From Methanobacteriota archaeon (GTDB lineage Archaea > Thermoplasmatota > Poseidoniia > Poseidoniales > Poseidoniaceae): a stretch of DNA of 36,757 nt. Numbering within the stretch: the stretch's first letter is position 1; every line of letters starts with the position of its first letter. Where the stretch lies: positions 1 through 36,757 of the forward strand of contig JABIGM010000001.1 in assembly GCA_018650165.1 (NCBI GenBank), written 5' to 3'. A program made the position numbers and the translations under genes. Positions 17,498 to 30,621 of the stretch are shown here, piece by piece. The notes below the pieces were generated by a model. The model worked only from the letters and a program-made list of their open reading frames with translations, was not told the DNA's origin and did not search any database.

Positions 17498-17536
17498 TTG
17501 CACTATGCTCAAGAACAGAGCACAACTCGCAGAGGT

Positions 17537-18556
17537 ATGACCGTACTAAATATCGCGATGGTTGGAAGCGATGACTTGGCCAAGTCAATCGCTAAGGCCA
17601 CAGACCAACGTGATGTTCACACCTATGTTCACAAAGAATCAGGAGCAGACGGTCCTCGTATCCTTTCGATAATTAGGCCAGCAAAACTTCCCGAAAGAAT
17701 TCGTCCATTTTTCAACGCATTATGTGCCGCTAGAGTTGGCCTGGTGGAGGTAAATGCCATCGATGCAAACTTTGGTGAAGTCTTGGTTGGTTATGCATCT
17801 GCAGGAATCAGTAAAGGAATTATTGTAATAAATCCTCCAAATGGTGAATGGATAGACGAAGAACAAGTAAAAGGTTTCTTTGCCCAAGCGGGTCTAAGTT
17901 CGTGGATGCAATGTAGCGCTGATGGAATTGAAATTCGCAATGCACTTTACGATTTAATGAATGATATTTCAGGAGAATTAGAATCTGCGAAAAGCGAATC
18001 ACTAGTTGTGCCTATCGACCAACATTTCAATGTCAAAGGAATCGGACTAGTTGCAATCGGATATGTTCAATCCGGATCTATTTCAGTTCATGATGAATTG
18101 TTACTTCAGCCGGCAGAGGGCCCTGGGACCGTCAAAAGCTTGCAGGTCATGGATGATGATGTTAACGAGGCGGTTGCAGGAGATCGAGTCGGAATTGCCT
18201 TGCGCAATACCAAGGAAGATCACCTTACTGGTGGTTCTTTAGTCATACATCCAGCAATCGAAGATAAGAATAAGGGGATTTCAATTCCTCTTTGCTTAGA
18301 TAAACATGAAAAAAGTACTCTAGAATTAGATATTTCTCCATTCCAAAAGAGAGTTCTAGTCGTTGGAGATATCGTGCATGCAAGTGTAGACCTTCAATTC
18401 GTAGTAGGTCGTGTGGAATCATTAGACTCCGGGCTTGAAATCGCTTGGGAGTCGCCATTGTATATTCGCAAAGAAAATCCCCCTGCTGTGATTATTGCAC
18501 AACTCGATTCCAAGCCTCGAATTTTAGGTAGCGCAAAACTTACTCGGCTTGCTTGA
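17537..18556 (+). CDS. Archaeal SelB/EF-Tu-like protein with degenerate G domain (aSelBL-type)
   Basis: Clear EF-Tu domain II (IDQHFNVKGIGLVAIGYVQSG...VKSLQV...AGDRVGIAL). P-loop eroded to GSDDLAKS; no DxxG or NKxD. Confidence 0.8.
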   Translation: MTVLNIAMVGSDDLAKSIAKATDQRDVHTYVHKESGADGPRILSIIRPAKLPERIRPFFNALCAARVGLVEVNAIDANFGEVLVGYASAGISKGIIVINPPNGEWIDEEQVKGFFAQAGLSSWMQCSADGIEIRNALYDLMNDISGELESAKSESLVVPIDQHFNVKGIGLVAIGYVQSGSISVHDELLLQPAEGPGTVKSLQVMDDDVNEAVAGDRVGIALRNTKEDHLTGGSLVIHPAIEDKNKGISIPLCLDKHEKSTLELDISPFQKRVLVVGDIVHASVDLQFVVGRVESLDSGLEIAWESPLYIRKENPPAVIIAQLDSKPRILGSAKLTRLA

Positions 18557-20624: not shown

Positions 20625-20717
20625 TGTGCCGAGGGGTCGGTTCCTCCTCCTTCAATCCATGTACGAATTACCCATACAATGTGATATTTGATGAAGGATA
20701 GGCTCTGCCACAGTATC

Positions 20718-21383
20718 ATGACGGGCACTTGTGTTGCACTTGTAAGTGGAGGAATAGACTCTCCCGTTGCTGTTGCAAGAATGCTCGTTAAGGGCTGGAA
20801 AGTATTTCCTCTTCATGCATCCCAAGAGCCGGTAACTGGACCCGCTGCAGAGCAAAAAACAATTGCTTTACTTCAGCATCTACTCCAATTAGACGGTCCG
20901 GTTGGTGATGCTGCAAGAAAGAATCTTTCTCCTGAATTAATTGTAGTTCCAGTTGCAGAAAAACTTGCACTTTTTACTGAACAATGGAATCATACTGAGT
21001 ACTTCATCCATATGAAGAGATTATTCAATGCTATAGCAACAATTCACGGTGAAGAAATCGATGCAACCCATGTCTTAACAGGCGAAAATTTAGGACAGGT
21101 CTCAAGTCAAACTCTTGGGAATTTAGGTGGAGTTGAAATTGCAACTCCACTTCTGCCATTACGCCCACTCCTAGCATTTGATAAAGTCACAATAATGACA
21201 ATGGCAAGGCGACTGGGCACTCTTGGTATCAGTGAAGGACCAGAAGTGTGTGATGCTCTTGGCCCTAGTAAACCTACTACAGTAGCCAATAAAGAATGGC
21301 TTGAACGTTCTGAAGATAGAGCAGGTGGCTTGCAGCAACTTGCTTCTAGTTGTTTTTCAGAGTACCGTAAAGTTTCATTGTGA
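20718..21383 (+). CDS. ThiI-like PP-loop ATP pyrophosphatase, catalytic domain only (no THUMP)
   Basis: VALVSGGIDSPVA, TGENLGQVSSQTLGNL, LRPLLAFDK, IMTMARRLGT. Only about 221 aa. The ORF is open to 20688. Confidence 0.82.
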   Translation: MTGTCVALVSGGIDSPVAVARMLVKGWKVFPLHASQEPVTGPAAEQKTIALLQHLLQLDGPVGDAARKNLSPELIVVPVAEKLALFTEQWNHTEYFIHMKRLFNAIATIHGEEIDATHVLTGENLGQVSSQTLGNLGGVEIATPLLPLRPLLAFDKVTIMTMARRLGTLGISEGPEVCDALGPSKPTTVANKEWLERSEDRAGGLQQLASSCFSEYRKVSL

Positions 21384-21483
21384 ACTTCTCCGAGTCCCCC
21401 CTTTAGGGGGGAATCCATAGTGTACACTCCCCCGTCGGTCTTTTATGCCCGCCGTGAGTGGAGGAGAGGAGAGGGCGCCACCC

Positions 21484-24400
21484 ATGAATGACAATAATAA
21501 TGCAATCACCGCTTTGGTTTTTACTTGTTTGATGCTAATTTCGCCTTTGGCGGGAGCCGCTTCAGTGACTACTTTCGGCAGTGGTGACTCTGAAATCACA
21601 GTGGAAGTTCGAGATAGCCCTGAATACACCAATAGCGAGGACGGAACCGTTACATTGCCCTCCGGTGCAACAGTAACCGGAGCTTCAGTAAAGATCTCAA
21701 CAGATATGGCGACCCATGAAACATTTACAACTATCAATTCAGAAACTGCTCAGTATGTCTGGGATCCAGTTTACAATAACCAGCAAACAGAATACTCAAC
21801 ACTTAGTGATTTCACATATCATGAAGATACAGTCAAACTAGTCAGTGGTGGGCTCTCTACTGATTTTGAACGTAGTTCTTCTGGTTTCTGGGACCATACA
21901 CAACCGCCAGTTTACGATGGAACTGGATGGCAGCATGGCACTCTAGCAGATTCTACAGTACTCAATGATAATTGTAACACAGGTAATGATTGCTGGGGGA
22001 CAAATTTGTTTGACAACGATAATGATTACACTAATGACGACCAAGGATCTTCGTTTTCTTACAATTTAATTACACCGGAAATGGAAGTAGACCCAAGTTC
22101 CCATATTGCTCGTTTTTCTAGTTGGCATGGCCTTCATTGGTCTCAAACAAACCCAGGTACTAATCCAACCAATACCTATTATGACTGCGCATATGTAATG
22201 GTTAGAAATTCTTCATCACCAAGTTTCCCTCCTCCTGATGTTGGATGGTCACATCTACCATTTGATGCAACAAACTCAACTGGAGTGAATTATGCTAACG
22301 GATTATATCCAATCGGCAGCGGTAATGGGAAAATTCAGAATTGTGATTCTCTAACAGGTACCGACTACGCTCTTGGAGGCGAATCGACTCACCCAACTAG
22401 TAACCCTAATGGCTGGGCTACTCTTGCTCTGAACCTTAACCAACACATTCACAAGTATGTCCAACTTAAGTTCGTAATGAGTTATAATTCAGGTTCTGGA
22501 ACTCCTGAGAATAGTACCATGCCGGGTTGGTTTATCGACGATTTCCGCATAGGCGACCCATTACCACAATCAGGTTCTATGTCTGTCAAAGGATTTACTC
22601 CTAAGCAATCCCCTAGCCCTGGATTTCCAGATGGATACGGAATACTTACTCTAGAGCAGGAAACCACTCCAACCAACTCACTAACAGTAACTATTCTTCG
22701 TGGAGGAACCACAGATATTGCACTAGATAGAGATGGCAATCAGATGACTGGGCTAGAAGGCCCAATTATCGAACTTTGGGGAATTGATGCAGCAGATTAT
22801 CCAGTGATTGATTTGAGATTTGATTTTGATACTGGGCAATACAAACTATCTACGGCTGTTCTTCATGGCTTGAATATTGGTACACGTATTGGTACTGGAT
22901 TAAATGATACAAACGTTGTATTCAATCCAATGATCATGGATGGTGTATGGCAATCTCCGGGAACCAACCAGCCGTTGATGTATGCACCCTCAATTTTAGA
23001 TAATTCATTCAATCCTCCGTTGTACCGTAATAAATTTTCACAACCGATAGTTGGAATTACTCCGCAGATAATTGATGACTGTGTAGAAGAACCGTCAATT
23101 ATGATTAGTCTACGTGATAACTCTATGCACAATAATTTAACGAATGGACAAAAGTGGGTTCCTTCTGAACCTATTTTTGGATTCGCTTCTATGCTATCCT
23201 ATGCCAATCCTTGTGGAATGTCAGAAATGTGGTTTGACTTGGAATTTGGTCATTCAGCTACAGGTGTCTCTTTGGATATTGCAAATGATGGTGACATCGA
23301 ATGGGCAATGAATGAACCAGCATTTGGCGGATTTGGTCGACAAACTACTTTGTGGTCAGGGTACTCAAATGGCATAAACTATGGTGTTGATGAATCCACT
23401 CTGACACTAAACTCCAATGGTGAAGCAACAGGCGGCCGTTTCATGCTACCAATCGGTGCTGATGTGAAAGCCGCAGATGTTATCTTCGCAGATAATACAG
23501 CAAACGATTTCACTCTATCTCTAAGTTCAGATGGACAAGAAGTTGCATTGGGAACTATGCCTAACCAAACAATACTAGCGCACGAAACACTCGAAACAAT
23601 GTTTGATTTCGAGAGTGCACTAATCTCTTTGCTAAACAACCCCTTAGTTAACCCATCTCACACTGATGCTTATGGAAACGATTGGGCAACATTCCAATTC
23701 AATGTCGTAAATAATAACGCTTCAAGTGGTACACAAGTAACGGTCCGTAACCTCGATGTAGTTTATGACTGGGATACAGTTCTAGACGGTTCGATTAATT
23801 TCGATAGAGAATTGAATCAAGGAATTGCATTAGGTACTGGGGCAACCGTCGATGTTCCATTATCCCTCTCTGCAAATAGTGGGGGCGCAGTTAACCTTTC
23901 AGAACTCTCAATTACAACATCCTCAGGTTATGACTCATCTCTAACATTAACTGGAAGTCCAGAAGGCCTGTATCCAAATGGAGACATTATTGAGGCTATT
24001 TCTATCCATAGTGTTGAGCAATCCACAGGAACCTCATTTGCTGAGGCTAGACTTCGCATGGAATCTTCCAGCGGAGTTGTAGAACTATCATTCTCTGAAT
24101 TGACACTATTTACAGAATCATATGACCCTTGGAATCTTATCTCTTTGGAGTCATCATCCTATAATGAAGTTGGAGATGAAATGCATATTACCTGGAGATT
24201 TAGAATAAACACTGCTTGGGAAGATACAGCAGAATTACGATTATATGCAAGTTTGATTGGTGCTGATGGCGTCAACGGACTACCAGGTGCTGTTGTTCTT
24301 GCTCCAGCCAATGGAAATGCAATAGAAAATGATGCAATGATATCAACCTTTGAGTTACAAAATGACGCAGGAGAAGTGCAAAACCTCGCTTCAGCTAGTT

Positions 24401-27300
24401 CTAATCAGAACATCAATCTGATTGGAAGTATTCGCTTAGAGGGTCTAGATGTTTCACCTGACCCTACATCATATAATCTATCTTTACAGCGTTGGGATGT
24501 CCAATCTATCAATGGCACAATTGTTTCTGAATGGGTTGAAGTCACTAATACATCTGGTGTAATTGGTGGCGACTTTGATTGGGCAGTAAATCTTGGATTA
24601 ACTGCTGCGGGACAGGCATCTTACCGATTCATGATCGATGGATATGTAGGTGGAGACACACTTTGTCCAGCAATACCAATTATTGCAGATGCAGACTGTG
24701 CGATTCCATTTAATCTATCAATCGATACTTATTCACCTACTTTAGTGAATATCTCTGTTCTTAAGGCCTCAAATTATGACCCAACTATCTGGTCTAATTG
24801 GAGAGGACTAGTTGATGACACATGGGTTCTTCCAAATGCTCAGCAAAAAGTACGTGTTCTAGCACAAGATATTCCAGCACCTCCTAGTACCCTTGAAATG
24901 TACTACTGGGTTGAATATGACCACGACACTGATTTTGATGGAATCGCAGACCCTGACGAGTACGTGACTCTCACTCTTGTTAGCGATGGTGAAGCGCCTA
25001 CTGCAAACTATACAGGCACCTTTAGCGATGATGCCAACAAAGGACAAGATCCTCCCGGCAAGGTCAGTATTTACATTGAAGGTAATGACTTAGGTGGAAA
25101 TGCAATCGAAGGCGGAGCTTATGGATTTGAAGATGATTTAGTAACCTATGTTTCAATGGATGCTAAGACCCCTAATATCAGGAATTTCTTTATCGAGAAT
25201 TCTGATGGTGAGCGCCTACATAATCCAAACGAGGGTGCACCATTCTACCAAGGACCATGGAACATGAGTATGTATGCTGGAAATGAATATCACCTAATCG
25301 TTGAAGCAACAGATGAGAATGGATGGAGGGATATCAATTACTTCGAAATCGATCTTGGACCTGAAAATATGGTTGTATACTATTCACCTCGCAATGAGAC
25401 TGCATGGGCGGATACAACGGATATCGAAATCGTTACTGCAAGTAATACTAGCGAAGGAGCTCAGGTTTTGCGAATGGATGGAGGTCGACTAATTGACCCA
25501 TTCGAGGATGAATTTTACTTAGACTTGCCAATTCGTATGAATTGGGATATCATCGGAATTGGTTCAACAACCTATGTTCCTCAATTACGAATCAAGGACA
25601 TGGATAGAGACCCTTCACTAATGAGTGAATCTGGCGGTCGTCACAAGCAGCGTTGGGTTTACAGCGATGGAATACAGTTGGATTTCAGAAATGGAATCAG
25701 TCCAACATTTAGCGACCTGTCTTACCCATATTCGCAAGATGTTACCGTGGCATTCGTTTTCCCCGGAGATACTGTTGCAATGGAAGGGCAGTACGCTTAC
25801 TTAGATGGAATTAACAACGGTGTTTATGTTCTACCCGAAGGTGAATTTACGATTGAAGTAACTCGCGTGGAAGCAATGATGGATGGTGGAAAGGGATACC
25901 TCGCCTATCCAGCAGGTGGTGCAGATGGTTCCCGTACCGATGGTCCAACCTTGCACACAATTGATGGTGGAGCATTCAATATCAACATTACAGCTCCTCC
26001 ATTGTCTAATGAATACACATACAATTTCCGTCTAATAAATCTGCCAGTTGGCGCAACAGACACTACAGCATCAATTTGTGATGGAAATAGTGCCTTTGGT
26101 TGTGCTTCATTCAAGATTAAGGTCGATGGTCAACAACCAGAGATTGAGAAGGATTCATGGAGAGCAATATCTGGAATTAACCAAGAAGTACTTGGAAACA
26201 CTATGCCTTCGTCCACTATGCACTGTGTTGATGTCCAAGCAATAGTTGAAGAAAACGCAGCATTACTTGCAGGTGAAGTAGACCTCAAGTGGTCTTTCTA
26301 CTCGGATGCTGATTCAAATCTGACATGGCCAGTATATGGGCAGAAATTTGGTGCTGAACCACAATCTCATTCACTTGGTCTTAAGATACAAGGCGGAGAT
26401 TATCTTGTTAGCGCAGACTGTGTTGATTTGTGGCCAGACCCTCAAGATCCAACCCAGGCTCAAATCACAACTATTGACTTAGTGATGTGGATTGAAGGAA
26501 GAGACTCTGCAGGATGGGCAATTGAAGGTGGAGGGCCAAACAGTGCAGGAGGAATCAGTTCAATTTGGTCTTCTAACCCAGAACACAATTCACAATACAG
26601 GTTAGTTCATGAACAGGCCAAGTTCAGTGTTATCGATGTAAGAATGACACCGAAGAGCCCAGAAGTAGGCGACGTACCAGAACTTGAGATATCTCTGCAG
26701 AACATTGGAACCAAAGATGGAAACATTACTCTAGAAATTCAATCTGTTACAGATGGTGAATTCCCTACAACTGAATTTACATGGACCACTGGAGATATCC
26801 CGCAAGGCGAATTGTCCAATATATTCGTAAAAGATTTGGAAATTTTCGCATCACCTACCAGTGGAATGTACTTCCTCGTAGTAGATGCAGATTCGAATGA
26901 AGTACTGTGGAACGGTTCGCAGAATTCTAAGTCTTTCAACGTTGCAGAAGCGAGTGATGATGAGGGGCTACTATCAGGTTCAGGAATGCTAATCGTTATT
27001 GGACTAGGTGCATTAATTCTGATTCTATTGGTCGCAGTAGTTGTTCTAGTAAAGCGCGATTCTGGCGACCCTTCATACGAGTATGAATACGAGTATGAAG
27101 ATGAAGAGAAAGCCTATGCAGAAATTCCATCTGCAGGAGGAGCCGGTCCTCCACCTTCAGCAGCACCAGCGGCAAATGTTGACCCATTGATGGCAGCAGC
27201 TCTGGCCGAATTCCCACAGTGGGATCAAGAGACGATCCAAGGTTACTTTGACCAAGGATGGGATATCGATACGCTCAGAGACTGGGTAAACAATCAGTGA
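21484..27300 (+). CDS. Giant (about 1940 aa) secreted, C-terminally membrane-anchored surface glycoprotein/adhesin-like protein
   Basis: Signal peptide AITALVFTCLMLISPLAGAA; SD GGAGGAG before ATG 21484; T/S/D/N/G-rich beta content; GWFIDDF-type beta-sandwich module; many N-x-S/T sequons; TM MLIVIGLGALILILLVAVVVLV; cytoplasmic tail. Confidence 0.9.
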   Translation: MNDNNNAITALVFTCLMLISPLAGAASVTTFGSGDSEITVEVRDSPEYTNSEDGTVTLPSGATVTGASVKISTDMATHETFTTINSETAQYVWDPVYNNQQTEYSTLSDFTYHEDTVKLVSGGLSTDFERSSSGFWDHTQPPVYDGTGWQHGTLADSTVLNDNCNTGNDCWGTNLFDNDNDYTNDDQGSSFSYNLITPEMEVDPSSHIARFSSWHGLHWSQTNPGTNPTNTYYDCAYVMVRNSSSPSFPPPDVGWSHLPFDATNSTGVNYANGLYPIGSGNGKIQNCDSLTGTDYALGGESTHPTSNPNGWATLALNLNQHIHKYVQLKFVMSYNSGSGTPENSTMPGWFIDDFRIGDPLPQSGSMSVKGFTPKQSPSPGFPDGYGILTLEQETTPTNSLTVTILRGGTTDIALDRDGNQMTGLEGPIIELWGIDAADYPVIDLRFDFDTGQYKLSTAVLHGLNIGTRIGTGLNDTNVVFNPMIMDGVWQSPGTNQPLMYAPSILDNSFNPPLYRNKFSQPIVGITPQIIDDCVEEPSIMISLRDNSMHNNLTNGQKWVPSEPIFGFASMLSYANPCGMSEMWFDLEFGHSATGVSLDIANDGDIEWAMNEPAFGGFGRQTTLWSGYSNGINYGVDESTLTLNSNGEATGGRFMLPIGADVKAADVIFADNTANDFTLSLSSDGQEVALGTMPNQTILAHETLETMFDFESALISLLNNPLVNPSHTDAYGNDWATFQFNVVNNNASSGTQVTVRNLDVVYDWDTVLDGSINFDRELNQGIALGTGATVDVPLSLSANSGGAVNLSELSITTSSGYDSSLTLTGSPEGLYPNGDIIEAISIHSVEQSTGTSFAEARLRMESSSGVVELSFSELTLFTESYDPWNLISLESSSYNEVGDEMHITWRFRINTAWEDTAELRLYASLIGADGVNGLPGAVVLAPANGNAIENDAMISTFELQNDAGEVQNLASASSNQNINLIGSIRLEGLDVSPDPTSYNLSLQRWDVQSINGTIVSEWVEVTNTSGVIGGDFDWAVNLGLTAAGQASYRFMIDGYVGGDTLCPAIPIIADADCAIPFNLSIDTYSPTLVNISVLKASNYDPTIWSNWRGLVDDTWVLPNAQQKVRVLAQDIPAPPSTLEMYYWVEYDHDTDFDGIADPDEYVTLTLVSDGEAPTANYTGTFSDDANKGQDPPGKVSIYIEGNDLGGNAIEGGAYGFEDDLVTYVSMDAKTPNIRNFFIENSDGERLHNPNEGAPFYQGPWNMSMYAGNEYHLIVEATDENGWRDINYFEIDLGPENMVVYYSPRNETAWADTTDIEIVTASNTSEGAQVLRMDGGRLIDPFEDEFYLDLPIRMNWDIIGIGSTTYVPQLRIKDMDRDPSLMSESGGRHKQRWVYSDGIQLDFRNGISPTFSDLSYPYSQDVTVAFVFPGDTVAMEGQYAYLDGINNGVYVLPEGEFTIEVTRVEAMMDGGKGYLAYPAGGADGSRTDGPTLHTIDGGAFNINITAPPLSNEYTYNFRLINLPVGATDTTASICDGNSAFGCASFKIKVDGQQPEIEKDSWRAISGINQEVLGNTMPSSTMHCVDVQAIVEENAALLAGEVDLKWSFYSDADSNLTWPVYGQKFGAEPQSHSLGLKIQGGDYLVSADCVDLWPDPQDPTQAQITTIDLVMWIEGRDSAGWAIEGGGPNSAGGISSIWSSNPEHNSQYRLVHEQAKFSVIDVRMTPKSPEVGDVPELEISLQNIGTKDGNITLEIQSVTDGEFPTTEFTWTTGDIPQGELSNIFVKDLEIFASPTSGMYFLVVDADSNEVLWNGSQNSKSFNVAEASDDEGLLSGSGMLIVIGLGALILILLVAVVVLVKRDSGDPSYEYEYEYEDEEKAYAEIPSAGGAGPPPSAAPAANVDPLMAAALAEFPQWDQETIQGYFDQGWDIDTLRDWVNNQ
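27076..27099 (+). repeat. Exact 12-bp tandem duplication (TACGAGTATGAA x2) encoding YEYEYEYE
   Basis: Seen directly in the sequence. Confidence 0.85.
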
Positions 27301-27306
27301 TTCATT

Positions 27307-28104
27307 ATGAACCTTGACTGGGATGATATCCATTGGGAAGACCCCGATGGAGGTACAATTGTACTACACGGTATATTGCCAACGGTGGTTTTGCCAAATA
27401 AAATGCGACCGCGATTCCAGTGGCATGGATTAGGTATCATGGGCACCAGCGAGGAAGAAGAAGTCTGGGTCGAAGAAGAGAAATCTGAAATTAAAGACGC
27501 TGGAATCAATCTTGATAGTGCGATTCTAAATGGCGGCCTTGACGGACTTTATCTTGAAATGTTGAGATGGATTGATGGATTACAAGTCGGTAGATTTCCC
27601 GATCCGGAGCCACGCAGATTACATAAAACCGCATTGAAGCACAGCCGTCCAATATTTTTCGCAGAACCCGATATGGATGATGATGACTGGGCTGATTTTT
27701 TAGAGAGGGAAGCGAAAGAAATGACTCGCCCTCTCAAGTTATTGAAAATTGTCTTTACATCTCGCCGTTGGCGAAAGAGCATCAAAAAGATGCGTAAGAA
27801 AGTAGTGCCGCAGCCCCCTCGGGAGCCTGATGACCTCCAAGCAGCTAGCGCTTTAGCCGCTGTATGGTGGTCATTAAATCGCGAAAATTCTGATAAGAAA
27901 CTAAACGTAGAGAAAGATGAACGCTTTGCAGCACGACTTAGAGGAGGCTTGGCGCAATTGCGAATCGAGCATGGAGCCGAAGCGGTGCTTCTAGTACCAA
28001 TCCAGCAGGCGTGGAGGGAATCAATGCTCAGCTCGTTAGAAAAGTTACCTAATCCAGAGGAGAGTTCATCACTCTCAAGCACTTCGGATGGAGAGGAGGA
28101 GTGA
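27307..28104 (+). CDS. Conserved hypothetical protein (possibly degenerate TraB/PrgY-like fold)
   Basis: Intact 265-aa ORF tightly coupled to both neighbours. Fold suggestion is weak. Confidence 0.75.
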   Translation: MNLDWDDIHWEDPDGGTIVLHGILPTVVLPNKMRPRFQWHGLGIMGTSEEEEVWVEEEKSEIKDAGINLDSAILNGGLDGLYLEMLRWIDGLQVGRFPDPEPRRLHKTALKHSRPIFFAEPDMDDDDWADFLEREAKEMTRPLKLLKIVFTSRRWRKSIKKMRKKVVPQPPREPDDLQAASALAAVWWSLNRENSDKKLNVEKDERFAARLRGGLAQLRIEHGAEAVLLVPIQQAWRESMLSSLEKLPNPEESSSLSSTSDGEEE

Positions 28105-28646
28105 CAATGAGTGGAACAAATAGCATCGAAGTTCGTGTTGAAAATCTGCTAGTACGATTCACTCCAACACCTTCTGTAGACCTTGAAGAAGCGATTGAAC
28201 GCCTCGGCGGAGTAAGAAATGGTGATGTCATAATCAAGATGTTAGATGCGCCACGTGCAACTCTCATAATTGATGAAAAGGGTCGAATAATTGTCCATGG
28301 TACTCATCGAATAGAAGCGGCGAGGGCTGCAGCAAAGGAAATGTTACTTCGTATGGGGAGAAATGATTCTGGATTAATTGCTGAACTAGGGCCAATTGTG
28401 GCTTCCTTTGATTTTGGCGAGGAAGTTCCAATTCACAACATTCGTTCTAATCTTGGTAGTGGTACAACATCAATTGACGAAAGACTGGGTTGTTTACGCC
28501 TTAATGATACTAGGCATGATTTGGAATTATTAATTTGGCCGACCGGGAAATGTGTTGCTTTAGAAGCGCGCCATCCAAATATGGTTGCCATGGCCGCAGT
28601 TCATTGGAAAGGAAAATTTGCTGATAAAAAATCGCTTAAGGCGTGA
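28101..28646 (+). CDS. Highly divergent TATA-binding-protein (TBP)-fold protein
   Basis: Two ~85-aa repeats resembling TBP: VRVENLLVRF..VDLEE...LDAPRATLIIDEKGRIIVHG and GPIVASFDFGEEV...LELLIWPTGKCV. GTG overlaps the upstream stop; ATG 28107 is an alternative start. Confidence 0.7.
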   Translation: MTMSGTNSIEVRVENLLVRFTPTPSVDLEEAIERLGGVRNGDVIIKMLDAPRATLIIDEKGRIIVHGTHRIEAARAAAKEMLLRMGRNDSGLIAELGPIVASFDFGEEVPIHNIRSNLGSGTTSIDERLGCLRLNDTRHDLELLIWPTGKCVALEARHPNMVAMAAVHWKGKFADKKSLKA

Positions 28647-29494
28647 GAGCAATGGATTGGAAAGGACCAATCCTCGATGACCATTTTCATCTGAATCGTA
28701 ATGGCCGATTTCTTGATGCAGCAAATGATTTTTTGCGGGTCGGTGGAACTGATTTAGTTCTGGTACATTGTCCTGATTTTACATCACCTCCTATTACCAG
28801 AGAAGGCCACACTGTAGCTTATGCAGATACTATTGCGATGGCAGAAGAAGTACGAAACCTTGGTCTTGGAGTACGTGTAATACTAGGTCCGCACCCCGCA
28901 GCCTTCGCTCACCAATTCGAATCTCTTGGCGATAGAGCCGAAGAGAATTATTGGGATAGTATTGAGACCGCCTTAGAATTTGTTCATGAAGGTAAAGCGC
29001 ACGGAATCGGGGAAGTTGGAAGGCCGCATTGGCCGGTTTCAGATGAAATTTGGGATCGCTCGAATTTATTGTTACTAGAAACTATGCAGATGGCTGCAAA
29101 AGAAGGGATTCCACTTCAACTCCATGTTGAGGGGGAATCTGATGAGACTTATGGGAATCTTGCCAAAATGGCAGATAAAGCAGGGTTAGCAAGAGAGCGA
29201 CTAGTAAGGCATTATGCACCCCCCCGTGTAGATGCAGCTTTCACACACGGTCTAACGCCGAGTGTGTTAGCAGGCAGTGGCTCAATCGACGAATTGATGT
29301 CTACATTTGAAGCATCATCACATGGATTCATGCTCGAGACTGATTACATGGATGACCCAAGAAGACCTGGTGCGGTTTTGGGTCCAAAGACAGTTCCAAA
29401 GAGAACACGCCAGTTATTGGAAGCCGGTTTAGACGAGGAGATGCTGTATCGCTGTCATAAGGACCTACCCGACCACATTTATGGTTCAGTCTAA
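28643..29494 (+). CDS. TatD-family (amidohydrolase superfamily) metal-dependent hydrolase
   Basis: PILDDHFHL, GPHP, GIGEVGRPHW, PLQLHVE, VRHY, FMLETDY. Confidence 0.9.
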   Translation: MRAMDWKGPILDDHFHLNRNGRFLDAANDFLRVGGTDLVLVHCPDFTSPPITREGHTVAYADTIAMAEEVRNLGLGVRVILGPHPAAFAHQFESLGDRAEENYWDSIETALEFVHEGKAHGIGEVGRPHWPVSDEIWDRSNLLLLETMQMAAKEGIPLQLHVEGESDETYGNLAKMADKAGLARERLVRHYAPPRVDAAFTHGLTPSVLAGSGSIDELMSTFEASSHGFMLETDYMDDPRRPGAVLGPKTVPKRTRQLLEAGLDEEMLYRCHKDLPDHIYGSV

Positions 29495-29532: not shown

Positions 29533-30621
29533 ATGGAATCTTTGAAGAGGGTCATTTTAATCTCGCTCCTCACCATTTGCTTGTTTGCACCGATGAGTTC
29601 ACAGGCGCAGGCAACTCTGATTGGCGTTGAACTAGATTGCGACCAATCAACCATCAATATCAATGTCCACCCTGAACAAAACGAACCGGTTATTGTCTCA
29701 TGTACAGTAACTAATACCGGCTCATTCAAAGAGAATATTGACTTGGATAGTGAAGTAGATGGTAATGAGTTCAGTTTATCATTTTCAGAATCATCGTTTG
29801 AATTGGATGCGGGAGATGATGCTAATTTTATTGCAACCTTTTCTGCATCACCGCGAATAGAAGTCACAACCGAAGATTACAATATATCTGCAACTGTTAT
29901 CAGTTTCGGAGTGGAGCCGATTTTTGTTCCGTTAGGCCAACTGGGTTCTACTGCAGAGATAAATGGTGAAGTAAATTCATTGGCATATTCGAGAGTTGAT
30001 CTGGAAGTCTCAAATCCGGCTACTCGAAACATCGAAGTCGGTGAAGAAGCAACAATCCAATTTACAATGTTCAACGATGGAAACAGAGTTGATAACTTAG
30101 AAGTAATTGTCGTCAACATTGATGAAATAGAGGATGCAGGATTCGAATTCGCAACAGATCCATTTGTCCGAGCAACAGTGAATCCCGGTGCGTCTTCAAA
30201 TCAAGGGGCAATCATCTTGATTGCACCAGATAGCGCATCTGATGAAATAACCATTCAAGTTCAACTAAGGGCCGTATCAACTCTTGACACTAGTGCAACT
30301 CCAAGTGAAGCCTCAATAAGAATAGTAGTGGCATCTTCTGGAAGTGATAGTGCAATCGATTTTAACTCGATGGATTCCGATAGTTATGCCATGATAGGCA
30401 TGGTGGCAGGTGGTGTAATTGGAGTAATTCTCTTACTTGTAGTAATCTCACGACTCACCAAGAAAGCAGGAAAGCAGAAGACGGCAGTCAAGCAAGCACA
30501 TAAGGCAAAGAAGGCTAATAAAAAGTCCAATGATGAACCTATTATCGAAGAAGAGGACGACTTAGATTTCGACGATGATTTCGGAGACCTTGATGACGAC
30601 TTCGATTTTGACGACTTATGA
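29533..30621 (+). CDS. Secreted membrane-anchored protein with two Ig-like/CARDB-like domains and a basic-then-acidic tail
   Basis: Signal peptide, CTVTNTG and FTMFNDGN beta-strand motifs, TM MIGMVAGGVIGVILLLVVI, tail KKAGKQK...DDDLDFDDDFGDLDDDFDFDDL. Confidence 0.85.
   Translation: MESLKRVILISLLTICLFAPMSSQAQATLIGVELDCDQSTININVHPEQNEPVIVSCTVTNTGSFKENIDLDSEVDGNEFSLSFSESSFELDAGDDANFIATFSASPRIEVTTEDYNISATVISFGVEPIFVPLGQLGSTAEINGEVNSLAYSRVDLEVSNPATRNIEVGEEATIQFTMFNDGNRVDNLEVIVVNIDEIEDAGFEFATDPFVRATVNPGASSNQGAIILIAPDSASDEITIQVQLRAVSTLDTSATPSEASIRIVVASSGSDSAIDFNSMDSDSYAMIGMVAGGVIGVILLLVVISRLTKKAGKQKTAVKQAHKAKKANKKSNDEPIIEEEDDLDFDDDFGDLDDDFDFDDL

Follow-up and report, generated by a model that had tools for sequence, protein, structure and literature searches.

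The TATA-binding protein (TBP) ranks among the most constrained proteins of archaea and eukaryotes, and the locus described here raises the question of what its saddle can be used for besides TATA bending. The locus lies in a stretch of 36,757 nucleotides from an archaeon of the Poseidoniales, or Marine Group II (MGII) (contig JABIGM010000001.1, positions 1 to 36,757 of the forward strand; below, the window), in which a first-pass annotation made from the sequence alone had picked out a degenerate TBP-fold protein without the canonical TATA-contact motifs. The gene in question, which we call TBPL (TBP-like), occupies positions 28107-28646 of the plus strand and encodes 179 amino acids from its ATG at 28107. 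What is new here is a bipartite TBP no longer serving in the canonical role of TBP. TBPL probably does a new job apart from that role, and we regard it as a natural experiment on the uses of a TBP saddle.

Fold, residues and conservation of the TBP-like protein

The two-repeat TBP pattern that had been read from the sequence was borne out by family models and by structure prediction. Pfam PF00352 (TBP) matched TBPL with 33.2 bits against a cut-off of 22.9, mainly from repeat 2. An AlphaFold2 (AF2) model from 31 homologues (predicted local distance difference test, pLDDT, 87.5) was compared with known structures, a check that had been proposed at the outset, and was found to be TBP-like by two methods: Foldseek aligned it with the full-length TBP 1ais_A at a template-modelling (TM) score of 0.82 and an E-value of 3.5e-11, and VIA-align matched it to the M. 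jannaschii TBP 2z8u_A with Z 17.7 and a root-mean-square deviation of 2.0 Å over 163 residues. Structural matches to archaeal TBPs reached Z 17-18 at 18-20% identity, and the model superposed on complete TBPs of both archaea and eukaryotes. The repeats lie at about 28125-28370 and about 28377-28625 (plus strand), and a protein of two repeats and 179 amino acids is not a monopartite TBP-domain protein, which would have a single domain of ~90-100 amino acids. As modelled, TBPL is a complete two-repeat TBP saddle. Fused or longer forms were not found, which is weak evidence.

At the sequence level TBPL scored 18.4 bits on the NCBIfam TBP equivalogs (NF001592/NF001594 and others), for which the cut-offs are 270-278. 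When the halves were compared with TBP by hhalign, the C half reached a probability of 97% and the N half 21-47%; within the TBPL family repeat 1 shows the stronger conservation of the two, yet it resembles TBP less. The C half scored alike against the N and C repeats of TBP, and repeat-to-repeat descent is not separable on these scores. These half-domain profile-profile runs are the informative ones, the comparison of the TBPL alignment with the single TBP sequence of the same genome having given a probability of 2.5%. A 2H-phosphoesterase-like identity, for which an H-x-T motif (VHGT) had made TBPL a candidate, was dropped because the motif is single and the fold is that of TBP.

TBPL is not the general TBP of its genome. 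The possibility, raised together with the original proposal, that it might be the only ordinary TBP present was answered by the canonical tbp that this genome carries on contig C47 (L001:1126-1755, minus strand; assembly of 1.75 Mb, 80% complete). Its two Pfam TBP repeats score 92 and 81 bits, it reaches 147.8-194.3 bits on the NCBIfam TBP models, and it carries both YEPEQFPG stirrups plus LMFRSGR and LIFGSGK. A canonical tbp with both repeats above the Pfam cut-off was found in 7/7 Poseidoniales genomes searched (G000 and six others). The separate canonical gene and the TBP-like model together uphold the description of TBPL as a degenerate TBP-fold paralogue.

We counted residues by column in 19 TBPL members from across the order, aligned with 36 canonical Thermoplasmatota TBPs; the roles of TBP positions in DNA kinking and TFB contact are those we take to be established by the literature on TBP-DNA and TBP-TFB (1AIS) structures. 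All four kinking positions are Phe in 36/36 canonical TBPs, whereas in 19/19 TBPL members they are, in order, deleted, Asp/Glu, Leu/Ile/Val and Phe/Trp. The repeat-1 stirrup Phe is gone through a 4-residue deletion (QFPG, 19/19), F57 (the LxF-SGK Phe of repeat 1) is replaced by Asp in 13 and Glu in 6, F161 (the repeat-2 stirrup Phe) by Leu/Ile/Val, and F178 (the LIFxSGK Phe of repeat 2) is aromatic throughout (Phe 11, Trp 8). The C-terminal stirrup YEPEQFPG, present in 36/36 TBPs, reads x-D-(gap)-E-R-L-G-C in TBPL, so that both stirrup motifs are indeed gone, as had been noted. The accompanying statement that the intercalating Phe of LIFxSGK is replaced in both repeats holds for repeat 1; in repeat 2 the Trp seen here occurs in MGIIa only, and the aromatic character of the position is kept. 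The central Asn/Thr contacts have changed as well: N11 is Asn in 10 and Thr in 7 members and otherwise Ser or Asp, N103 is Pro, Glu, Asp or Ser, T65 is His in 19/19, and T186 is Leu in 8 and Thr in 7. The NLN of helix H1' is not kept. Judged from these columns, the TATA-kinking and TFB-contact residues of TBPL are lost.

Other positions were retained or newly fixed. The basic rim persists, with K51 replaced by Arg or His, R167 kept as Arg, K172 replaced by Arg, and K182 occupied by Arg, His or Lys. New invariants across the order are R19, T54, G61, H66-G67 and R138-H139 with an acidic residue at 58, to which G97 and G149 are added. The rewritten C-terminal stirrup is itself conserved, with D126 in 17/19, R128 in 16/19, and R138 and H139 in 18/19 members.

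TBPL was found as a single copy in 119/121 Poseidoniales genomes, covering all 21 genera and 3 families. In one of the two genomes that gave no match (G094) the contig ends beside the upstream gene, and the other (G025) is without all three genes of the locus; a stop inside a match, a TGA, was seen in one genome (G105) only. The family profile matched 0/45 genomes of sister families of the class, and no copies were found in viral contigs. A scan of 1.84 billion representative proteins gave 66 matches at E up to 0.001, mostly short pieces of the family or full-length members; the source names on record are Poseidoniaceae, Poseidonia and 'Euryarchaeota archaeon' (metagenome-assembled genomes). 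The matches included one canonical TBP and one RCC1-repeat protein (P0172, 904 amino acids, 8 matching stretches), which was rejected as a spurious relative. Within a genus, the rate of nonsynonymous substitution (dN) was 0.10-0.16 with synonymous substitution (dS) saturated, and dN/dS was about 0.04-0.07. TBPL is a real gene under strong purifying selection and a single-copy core gene of Poseidoniales. It nevertheless evolves far faster than canonical TBP in the same genomes, the end branches being 0.1-1.4 for TBPL vs 0.02-0.07 for canonical TBP.

One genome, G003, appeared to have a truncated TBPL, and this was discarded as an artefact: masked runs of N (L044, G003:C1 4972-4986; also L092) make both its TBPL gene and its canonical tbp look broken in an otherwise complete genome.

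Origin of the gene beside tatD

Directly downstream of TBPL lies tatD (28652-29494, plus strand). We compared the coordinates of canonical tbp and tatD in 50 non-Poseidoniales Thermoplasmatota genomes in which both genes were found, and in 12/50, from at least nine families, the gene immediately upstream of tatD, and on its strand, was canonical tbp. Ten of these genomes had match-to-match gaps of 39-151 nt, and the remaining two had gaps of about 430 nt and 620 nt; genomes with a single tbp were among the 12. A tblastn search of seven fetched loci confirmed the arrangement and showed no TraB-like gene there. In Poseidoniales, canonical tbp follows a gene for an mvk-like kinase, an arrangement not seen in other TBP loci or in MGIII, the sister order. 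Because tbp precedes tatD in many other Thermoplasmatota, TBPL appears to occupy an old tbp slot.

TBPL is therefore very probably a diverged tbp duplicate. We propose that tbp was duplicated in the stem lineage of Poseidoniales, that the TATA and TFB machinery was retained by the copy now beside the mvk-like gene (contig C47 in this genome), and that the resident copy by tatD gave up three of its four kinking Phe along with the central Asn/Thr contacts and the stirrup that docks TFB, while it would have fixed R19, Asp/Glu58, H66 and R138-H139. In the tree TBPL is monophyletic (support 100) and about 2.9 substitutions per site away from all TBPs. The tbp-tatD gene pair in Thermoplasmatota appears to be unreported, and no paper on a tbp-tatD link or on the TBPL family was found in the literature library that was searched.

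The canonical TBP of Poseidoniales has peculiarities of its own. In its repeat 2, between S1' and H1', it bears an insertion of ~26 residues (112-137 in its own numbering), found at the loci L001, L092-L095 and L097 and absent from 31 other Thermoplasmatota TBPs; its clade has a long stem branch (0.96), and it scores 81-92 bits on Pfam vs 100-114. The insertion, the long stem and the lower score show that the 'normal' copy, too, changed after the presumed duplication.

The three-gene unit and its surroundings

The gene immediately upstream of TBPL (27307-28104, plus strand) encodes a protein of 265 amino acids (P0188), which the first-pass annotation had listed as unknown. This stands at the level of sequence families, as no Pfam, NCBIfam or PDB sequence match was found for it and no Pfam hit in 18/18 members of its family; from its AF2 model (pLDDT 90.3), in contrast, a TraB/PrgY/GumN-type fold was recognised. 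In a wide VIA search the model matched 8bqs_DQ with Z 9.8 over 210 residues, followed by ChaN, EreC (erythromycin esterase) and BcR135-type proteins at Z 4.4-4.8. Tetrahymena complex IV contains a TraB-family subunit of 385 amino acids, COXTT5 (PMC10060162 supplement), which was equated with 8bqs_DQ by length only; a phmmer search with the genome's canonical TraB, which is encoded elsewhere, did not retrieve the Tetrahymena chain. An Atlas language-model search led to an archaeal PF01963 cluster (score 0.90, 170 shared features), and hhalign against the canonical TraB of the same genome gave a probability of 0.4%. The structural model thus identifies a divergent TraB/PrgY/GumN-fold protein. 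Its family alignment (A2) has no invariant His, the His/Glu catalytic motifs and the sequence threshold of TraB are not reached, and because of the missing invariant His the protein is unlikely to be a hydrolase of the type usual for TraB/PrgY/GumN. Its profile matched 34/35 other Poseidoniales genomes and 0/165 other Thermoplasmatota genomes, a range equal to that of TBPL, and the gene always lies directly upstream of TBPL.

The downstream gene encodes a metal-dependent TIM-barrel hydrolase of the TatD family with 280 amino acids (Pfam TatD_DNase, PF01026, 81 bits) and is the sole PF01026 gene found in the genome. Orthologues were present in 76/81 Thermoplasmatota genomes, and the metal ligands H11, H13, E121, H158, H187 and D231 are invariant in 22 aligned orthologues, MGIII included.

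The three genes are tightly packed. The stop of the TraB-fold gene at 28104 is followed after 2 nt by the TBPL ATG, and the TBPL stop (28644-28646) after 5 nt by the tatD ATG at 28652, with overlapping GTG starts as an alternative for tatD. TBPL had first been given as a gene of 181 amino acids at 28101-28646; that frame is open, and its GTG at 28101 is in frame with the ATG at 28107, two codons (six bases) further on. The sequence makes ATG 28107 the most likely start, because a Shine-Dalgarno-like GGAGG at 28095-28099 (plus strand), within the 3' end of the TraB-fold gene, precedes it by 7 nt, and the database copy of the protein (P0002; 179 amino acids, 100% identity) also begins there. Public annotation of TBPL, 'TATA-box binding protein' at JGI and 'hypothetical protein' at NCBI, is misleading.

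The first-pass annotation had also proposed to look at operon conservation, and had described a translationally coupled cluster of TBPL with a giant surface protein, the unknown protein and TatD, away from transcription genes. The order TraB-fold gene, TBPL, tatD was found in 20/20 loci sampled from all three families, with junctions ranging from overlaps to ~90 nt, and Pfam and NCBIfam scans of the window showed no transcription genes nearby. Tight coupling with the TraB-fold gene and tatD was therefore upheld, whereas the giant protein does not belong to the unit, since the streamlined MGIIb genomes have the trio by itself, flanked by a divergently oriented gene and by tRNA-Gly(TCC). The giant gene (21445-27300, plus strand; a surface-type protein of 1951 amino acids), whose stop at 27300 precedes the TraB-fold ATG at 27307, is a neighbour here and lies outside the conserved unit. 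It is found upstream in MGIIa loci, in L038 (f2) and in the three MGIIb loci that branch early (L037, L039, L040), and is absent upstream in 9 MGIIb loci, where the upstream gene is divergently oriented; a FabI-PKS operon lies downstream in the same loci as the giant gene (MGIIa, f2 L038 and MGIIb L037, L039, L040). PADLOC gave no hit for the TraB-fold protein, TBPL or TatD, and an anti-phage defence system, for example with a QatD-type TatD nuclease, was rejected on this ground and because the genes are core and syntenic, not patchy.

Several other features of the surroundings were recorded. The tRNA-Gly(TCC) of MGIIb lies 3' of tatD in a gap of ~400 nt before the next gene (L045:6682-6756, L035:6728-6802, L047:6663-6737). 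Between tatD and the FabI-PKS operon, in MGIIa loci only, is a gene for a choice-of-anchor T family protein (window 29533-30621, plus strand; NF041740, 92 bits), in which a membrane segment towards the C-terminus is suggested by weak matches of residues 284-342 to membrane-helix families. Further upstream, the gene at 17498-18556 (plus strand) encodes 352 amino acids that match SelB, EF-1alpha and EF-Tu models at residues ~144-259 only, the domain II region; no G-domain match was reported, and the protein may be what is left of a SelB-like or EF-like factor, or else a factor with a specialised role. The 231-amino-acid product of 20688-21383 (plus strand) matches the C-terminal PP-loop part of ThiI (TIGR00342 positions 172-364) without the N-terminal THUMP.

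Possible roles of the saddle and known relatives

The best overall explanation, to which we would give an even chance of being right, is that TBPL is a repurposed tbp duplicate acting as a binding module. We put forward its mechanism more tentatively, as a non-kinking module that works with the TraB-fold protein and perhaps with TatD. The TBPL saddle would no longer kink TATA DNA or recruit canonical TFB, and would bind nucleic acid without kinking it, or a protein. A module with a fixed partner is suggested by the conservation of the basic rim, of the predicted concave-face residues R19 and H66, and of the rewritten C-terminal stirrup. TBPL would form a complex with the co-originating and translationally coupled TraB-fold protein, which is the best-supported partner because of the same origin, the tight coupling and the correlated divergence; in pairwise distances TBPL follows the TraB-fold protein (partial r 0.64) more than TatD (0.35), which is a weak measure. 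By analogy with the single TBP-like domain of RNase HIII, TBPL may present substrate to TatD, the putative catalytic end of the unit. A more speculative version, which we hold to be rather doubtful, would make TBPL the first bipartite TBP saddle outside transcription, a non-kinking clamp for nucleic acid or substrate in a complex of three, together with a TraB-fold protein that is silent in catalysis and with the sole TatD, for example in the repair of DNA damaged by light or reactive oxygen species.

A number of points weigh against this account. Long branches dominate the tree, which is compatible with a sister relation of TBPL and Poseidoniales TBP: when the two were forced into one clade, the topology was not rejected (approximately unbiased test, p-AU 0.65), at a log-likelihood 3.3 above that of the free search. 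In MGIII tatD stands alone and tbp elsewhere, so either the two genes became separated in this order or the slot argument has less force than it seems to have, slot continuity being inferred. The adjacency to tatD, in which the first-pass annotation had seen a sign of TBPL acting with TatD, is real; it carries less weight than was given to it, because it was inherited from canonical tbp, and the synteny of TBPL and tatD is therefore weaker evidence for a partnership. Residues were assigned to the concave face of TBPL from the TBP alignment and strand periodicity, not from coordinates. An origin by tbp duplication also raises the prior for a role related to transcription, and there is a precedent in metazoan TRF2/TBPL1, a TBP paralogue that does not bind TATA and works in transcription. 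Finally, two TFB-family genes (four TFIIB-repeat matches) were found in 46/52 Poseidoniales genomes searched, this one included. The second TFB of this genome (L103/L104, contig C13:18355-18858, minus strand, cut by the contig end) is divergent, with 52 and 48 bits vs 87 and 81 for the main TFB, and could be a partner of TBPL. All nine MGIII genomes have six TFIIB-repeat matches, that is, three TFB genes.

The main rival holds that TBPL is a specialised initiation factor in the manner of TRF2, which would serve a subset of TATA-less promoters, perhaps with the second TFB. Descent from tbp with the whole saddle preserved would suit such a factor, as would the basic rim residues that were kept, the pair of TFB-family genes in most Poseidoniales genomes, one of them divergent, and a C-terminal stirrup, the TFB dock in TBP, that was rewritten yet strongly conserved. 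We nevertheless consider it unlikely, as the canonical TFB-contact residues and H1' are not kept, an acidic residue takes the place of a kinking Phe on the DNA face, TBPL evolves far faster than canonical TBP and is translationally coupled to two enzyme-fold genes, and extra TFBs also occur in MGIII, which is without TBPL. Co-origin and tight coupling with the TraB-fold gene can also be read as the mark of a protein-only scaffold or regulator, the saddle of which would bind the TraB-fold protein, another protein or a small ligand, with neither nucleic acid nor TatD involved. The conserved, exposed and charged residues E72, R75 and E80 of helix H2 agree with this, as do the isoelectric points of several TBPL members (4.7-7.9, acidic to neutral); set against the retained rim positions, which contact phosphates in TBP, and R19 and H66, which are invariant and predicted to lie on the concave face, they leave the scaffold with a somewhat smaller chance than the initiation factor.

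An antagonist of TBP or TFB, proposed earlier as one option, would be a decoy that damps transcription by heterodimerising with TBP or sequestering TFB. The TBP-like shape of the model and the acidic residue 58 on the DNA face can be reconciled with this, and we still judge it improbable, given that the TFB-contact residues are not conserved, that no evidence of regulated expression exists and that the operon context consists of enzyme-fold genes. That TBPL might be a decaying or neutral, functionless relic of the duplication accords with the loss of the canonical functional residues; against it, the gene is intact in 119/121 genomes over the whole order, with one internal TGA (G105), its dN/dS is 0.04-0.07, and R19, H66, G61, G97 and G149 have become invariant, which makes this reading negligible. 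The repurposed binding module remains the explanation we prefer.

Compared with known systems, TBPL is closest to canonical archaeal TBP (P. woesei 1AIS, M. jannaschii 2Z8U and the copy on contig C47), with which it shares two tandem repeats, ~180 amino acids and one saddle, and, with the TBP of other Thermoplasmatota, the slot upstream of tatD. It differs from canonical TBP in the loss of three of four kinking Phe, in altered central Asn/Thr, in an H1' that is not conserved, and in its stirrups, the N-terminal one being 4 residues shorter and the C-terminal one rewritten; it also falls far below the NCBIfam cut-offs and evolves many times faster. TRF2/TLF/TBPL1 is likewise a full-length TBP paralogue in which TATA recognition is lost and the intercalating Phe positions are changed; TFIIA and TFIIB binding is kept there, whereas TBPL has not kept the TFB-contact residues and sits in an operon with enzyme-fold genes. 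The TBP paralogues of Halobacteria and other archaea, which are also extra tbp-derived genes, score as ordinary TBPs and, unlike TBPL, keep the DNA- and TFB-contact motifs. The TBP-like domain of the poxvirus early transcription factor (7amv_K) is a strongly diverged two-lobed module as well, with a much weaker structural match (Z 7.6 over 157 residues) and as part of a 708-residue viral factor.

In TBPL a whole two-repeat saddle appears to have been released by a tbp duplication in the common ancestor of those planktonic Euryarchaeota that are most abundant in the ocean, to have shed its TATA and TFB contacts, and then to have been kept under strong selection throughout a globally abundant order. 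Outside TBP, the TBP-like domains that have been characterised to date occur as single copies, as noted by Brindefalk et al. (2013, PMC3597702); among them are the N-terminal, substrate-binding domain of RNase HIII, those of AlkA/OGG1-type DNA glycosylases, and the monopartite Thermococcales proteins. Like TBPL, these examples use a TBP-type fold apart from TATA binding, beside or fused with a nucleic-acid enzyme; unlike them, TBPL is bipartite, stands alone as a protein and derives from a two-repeat TBP.

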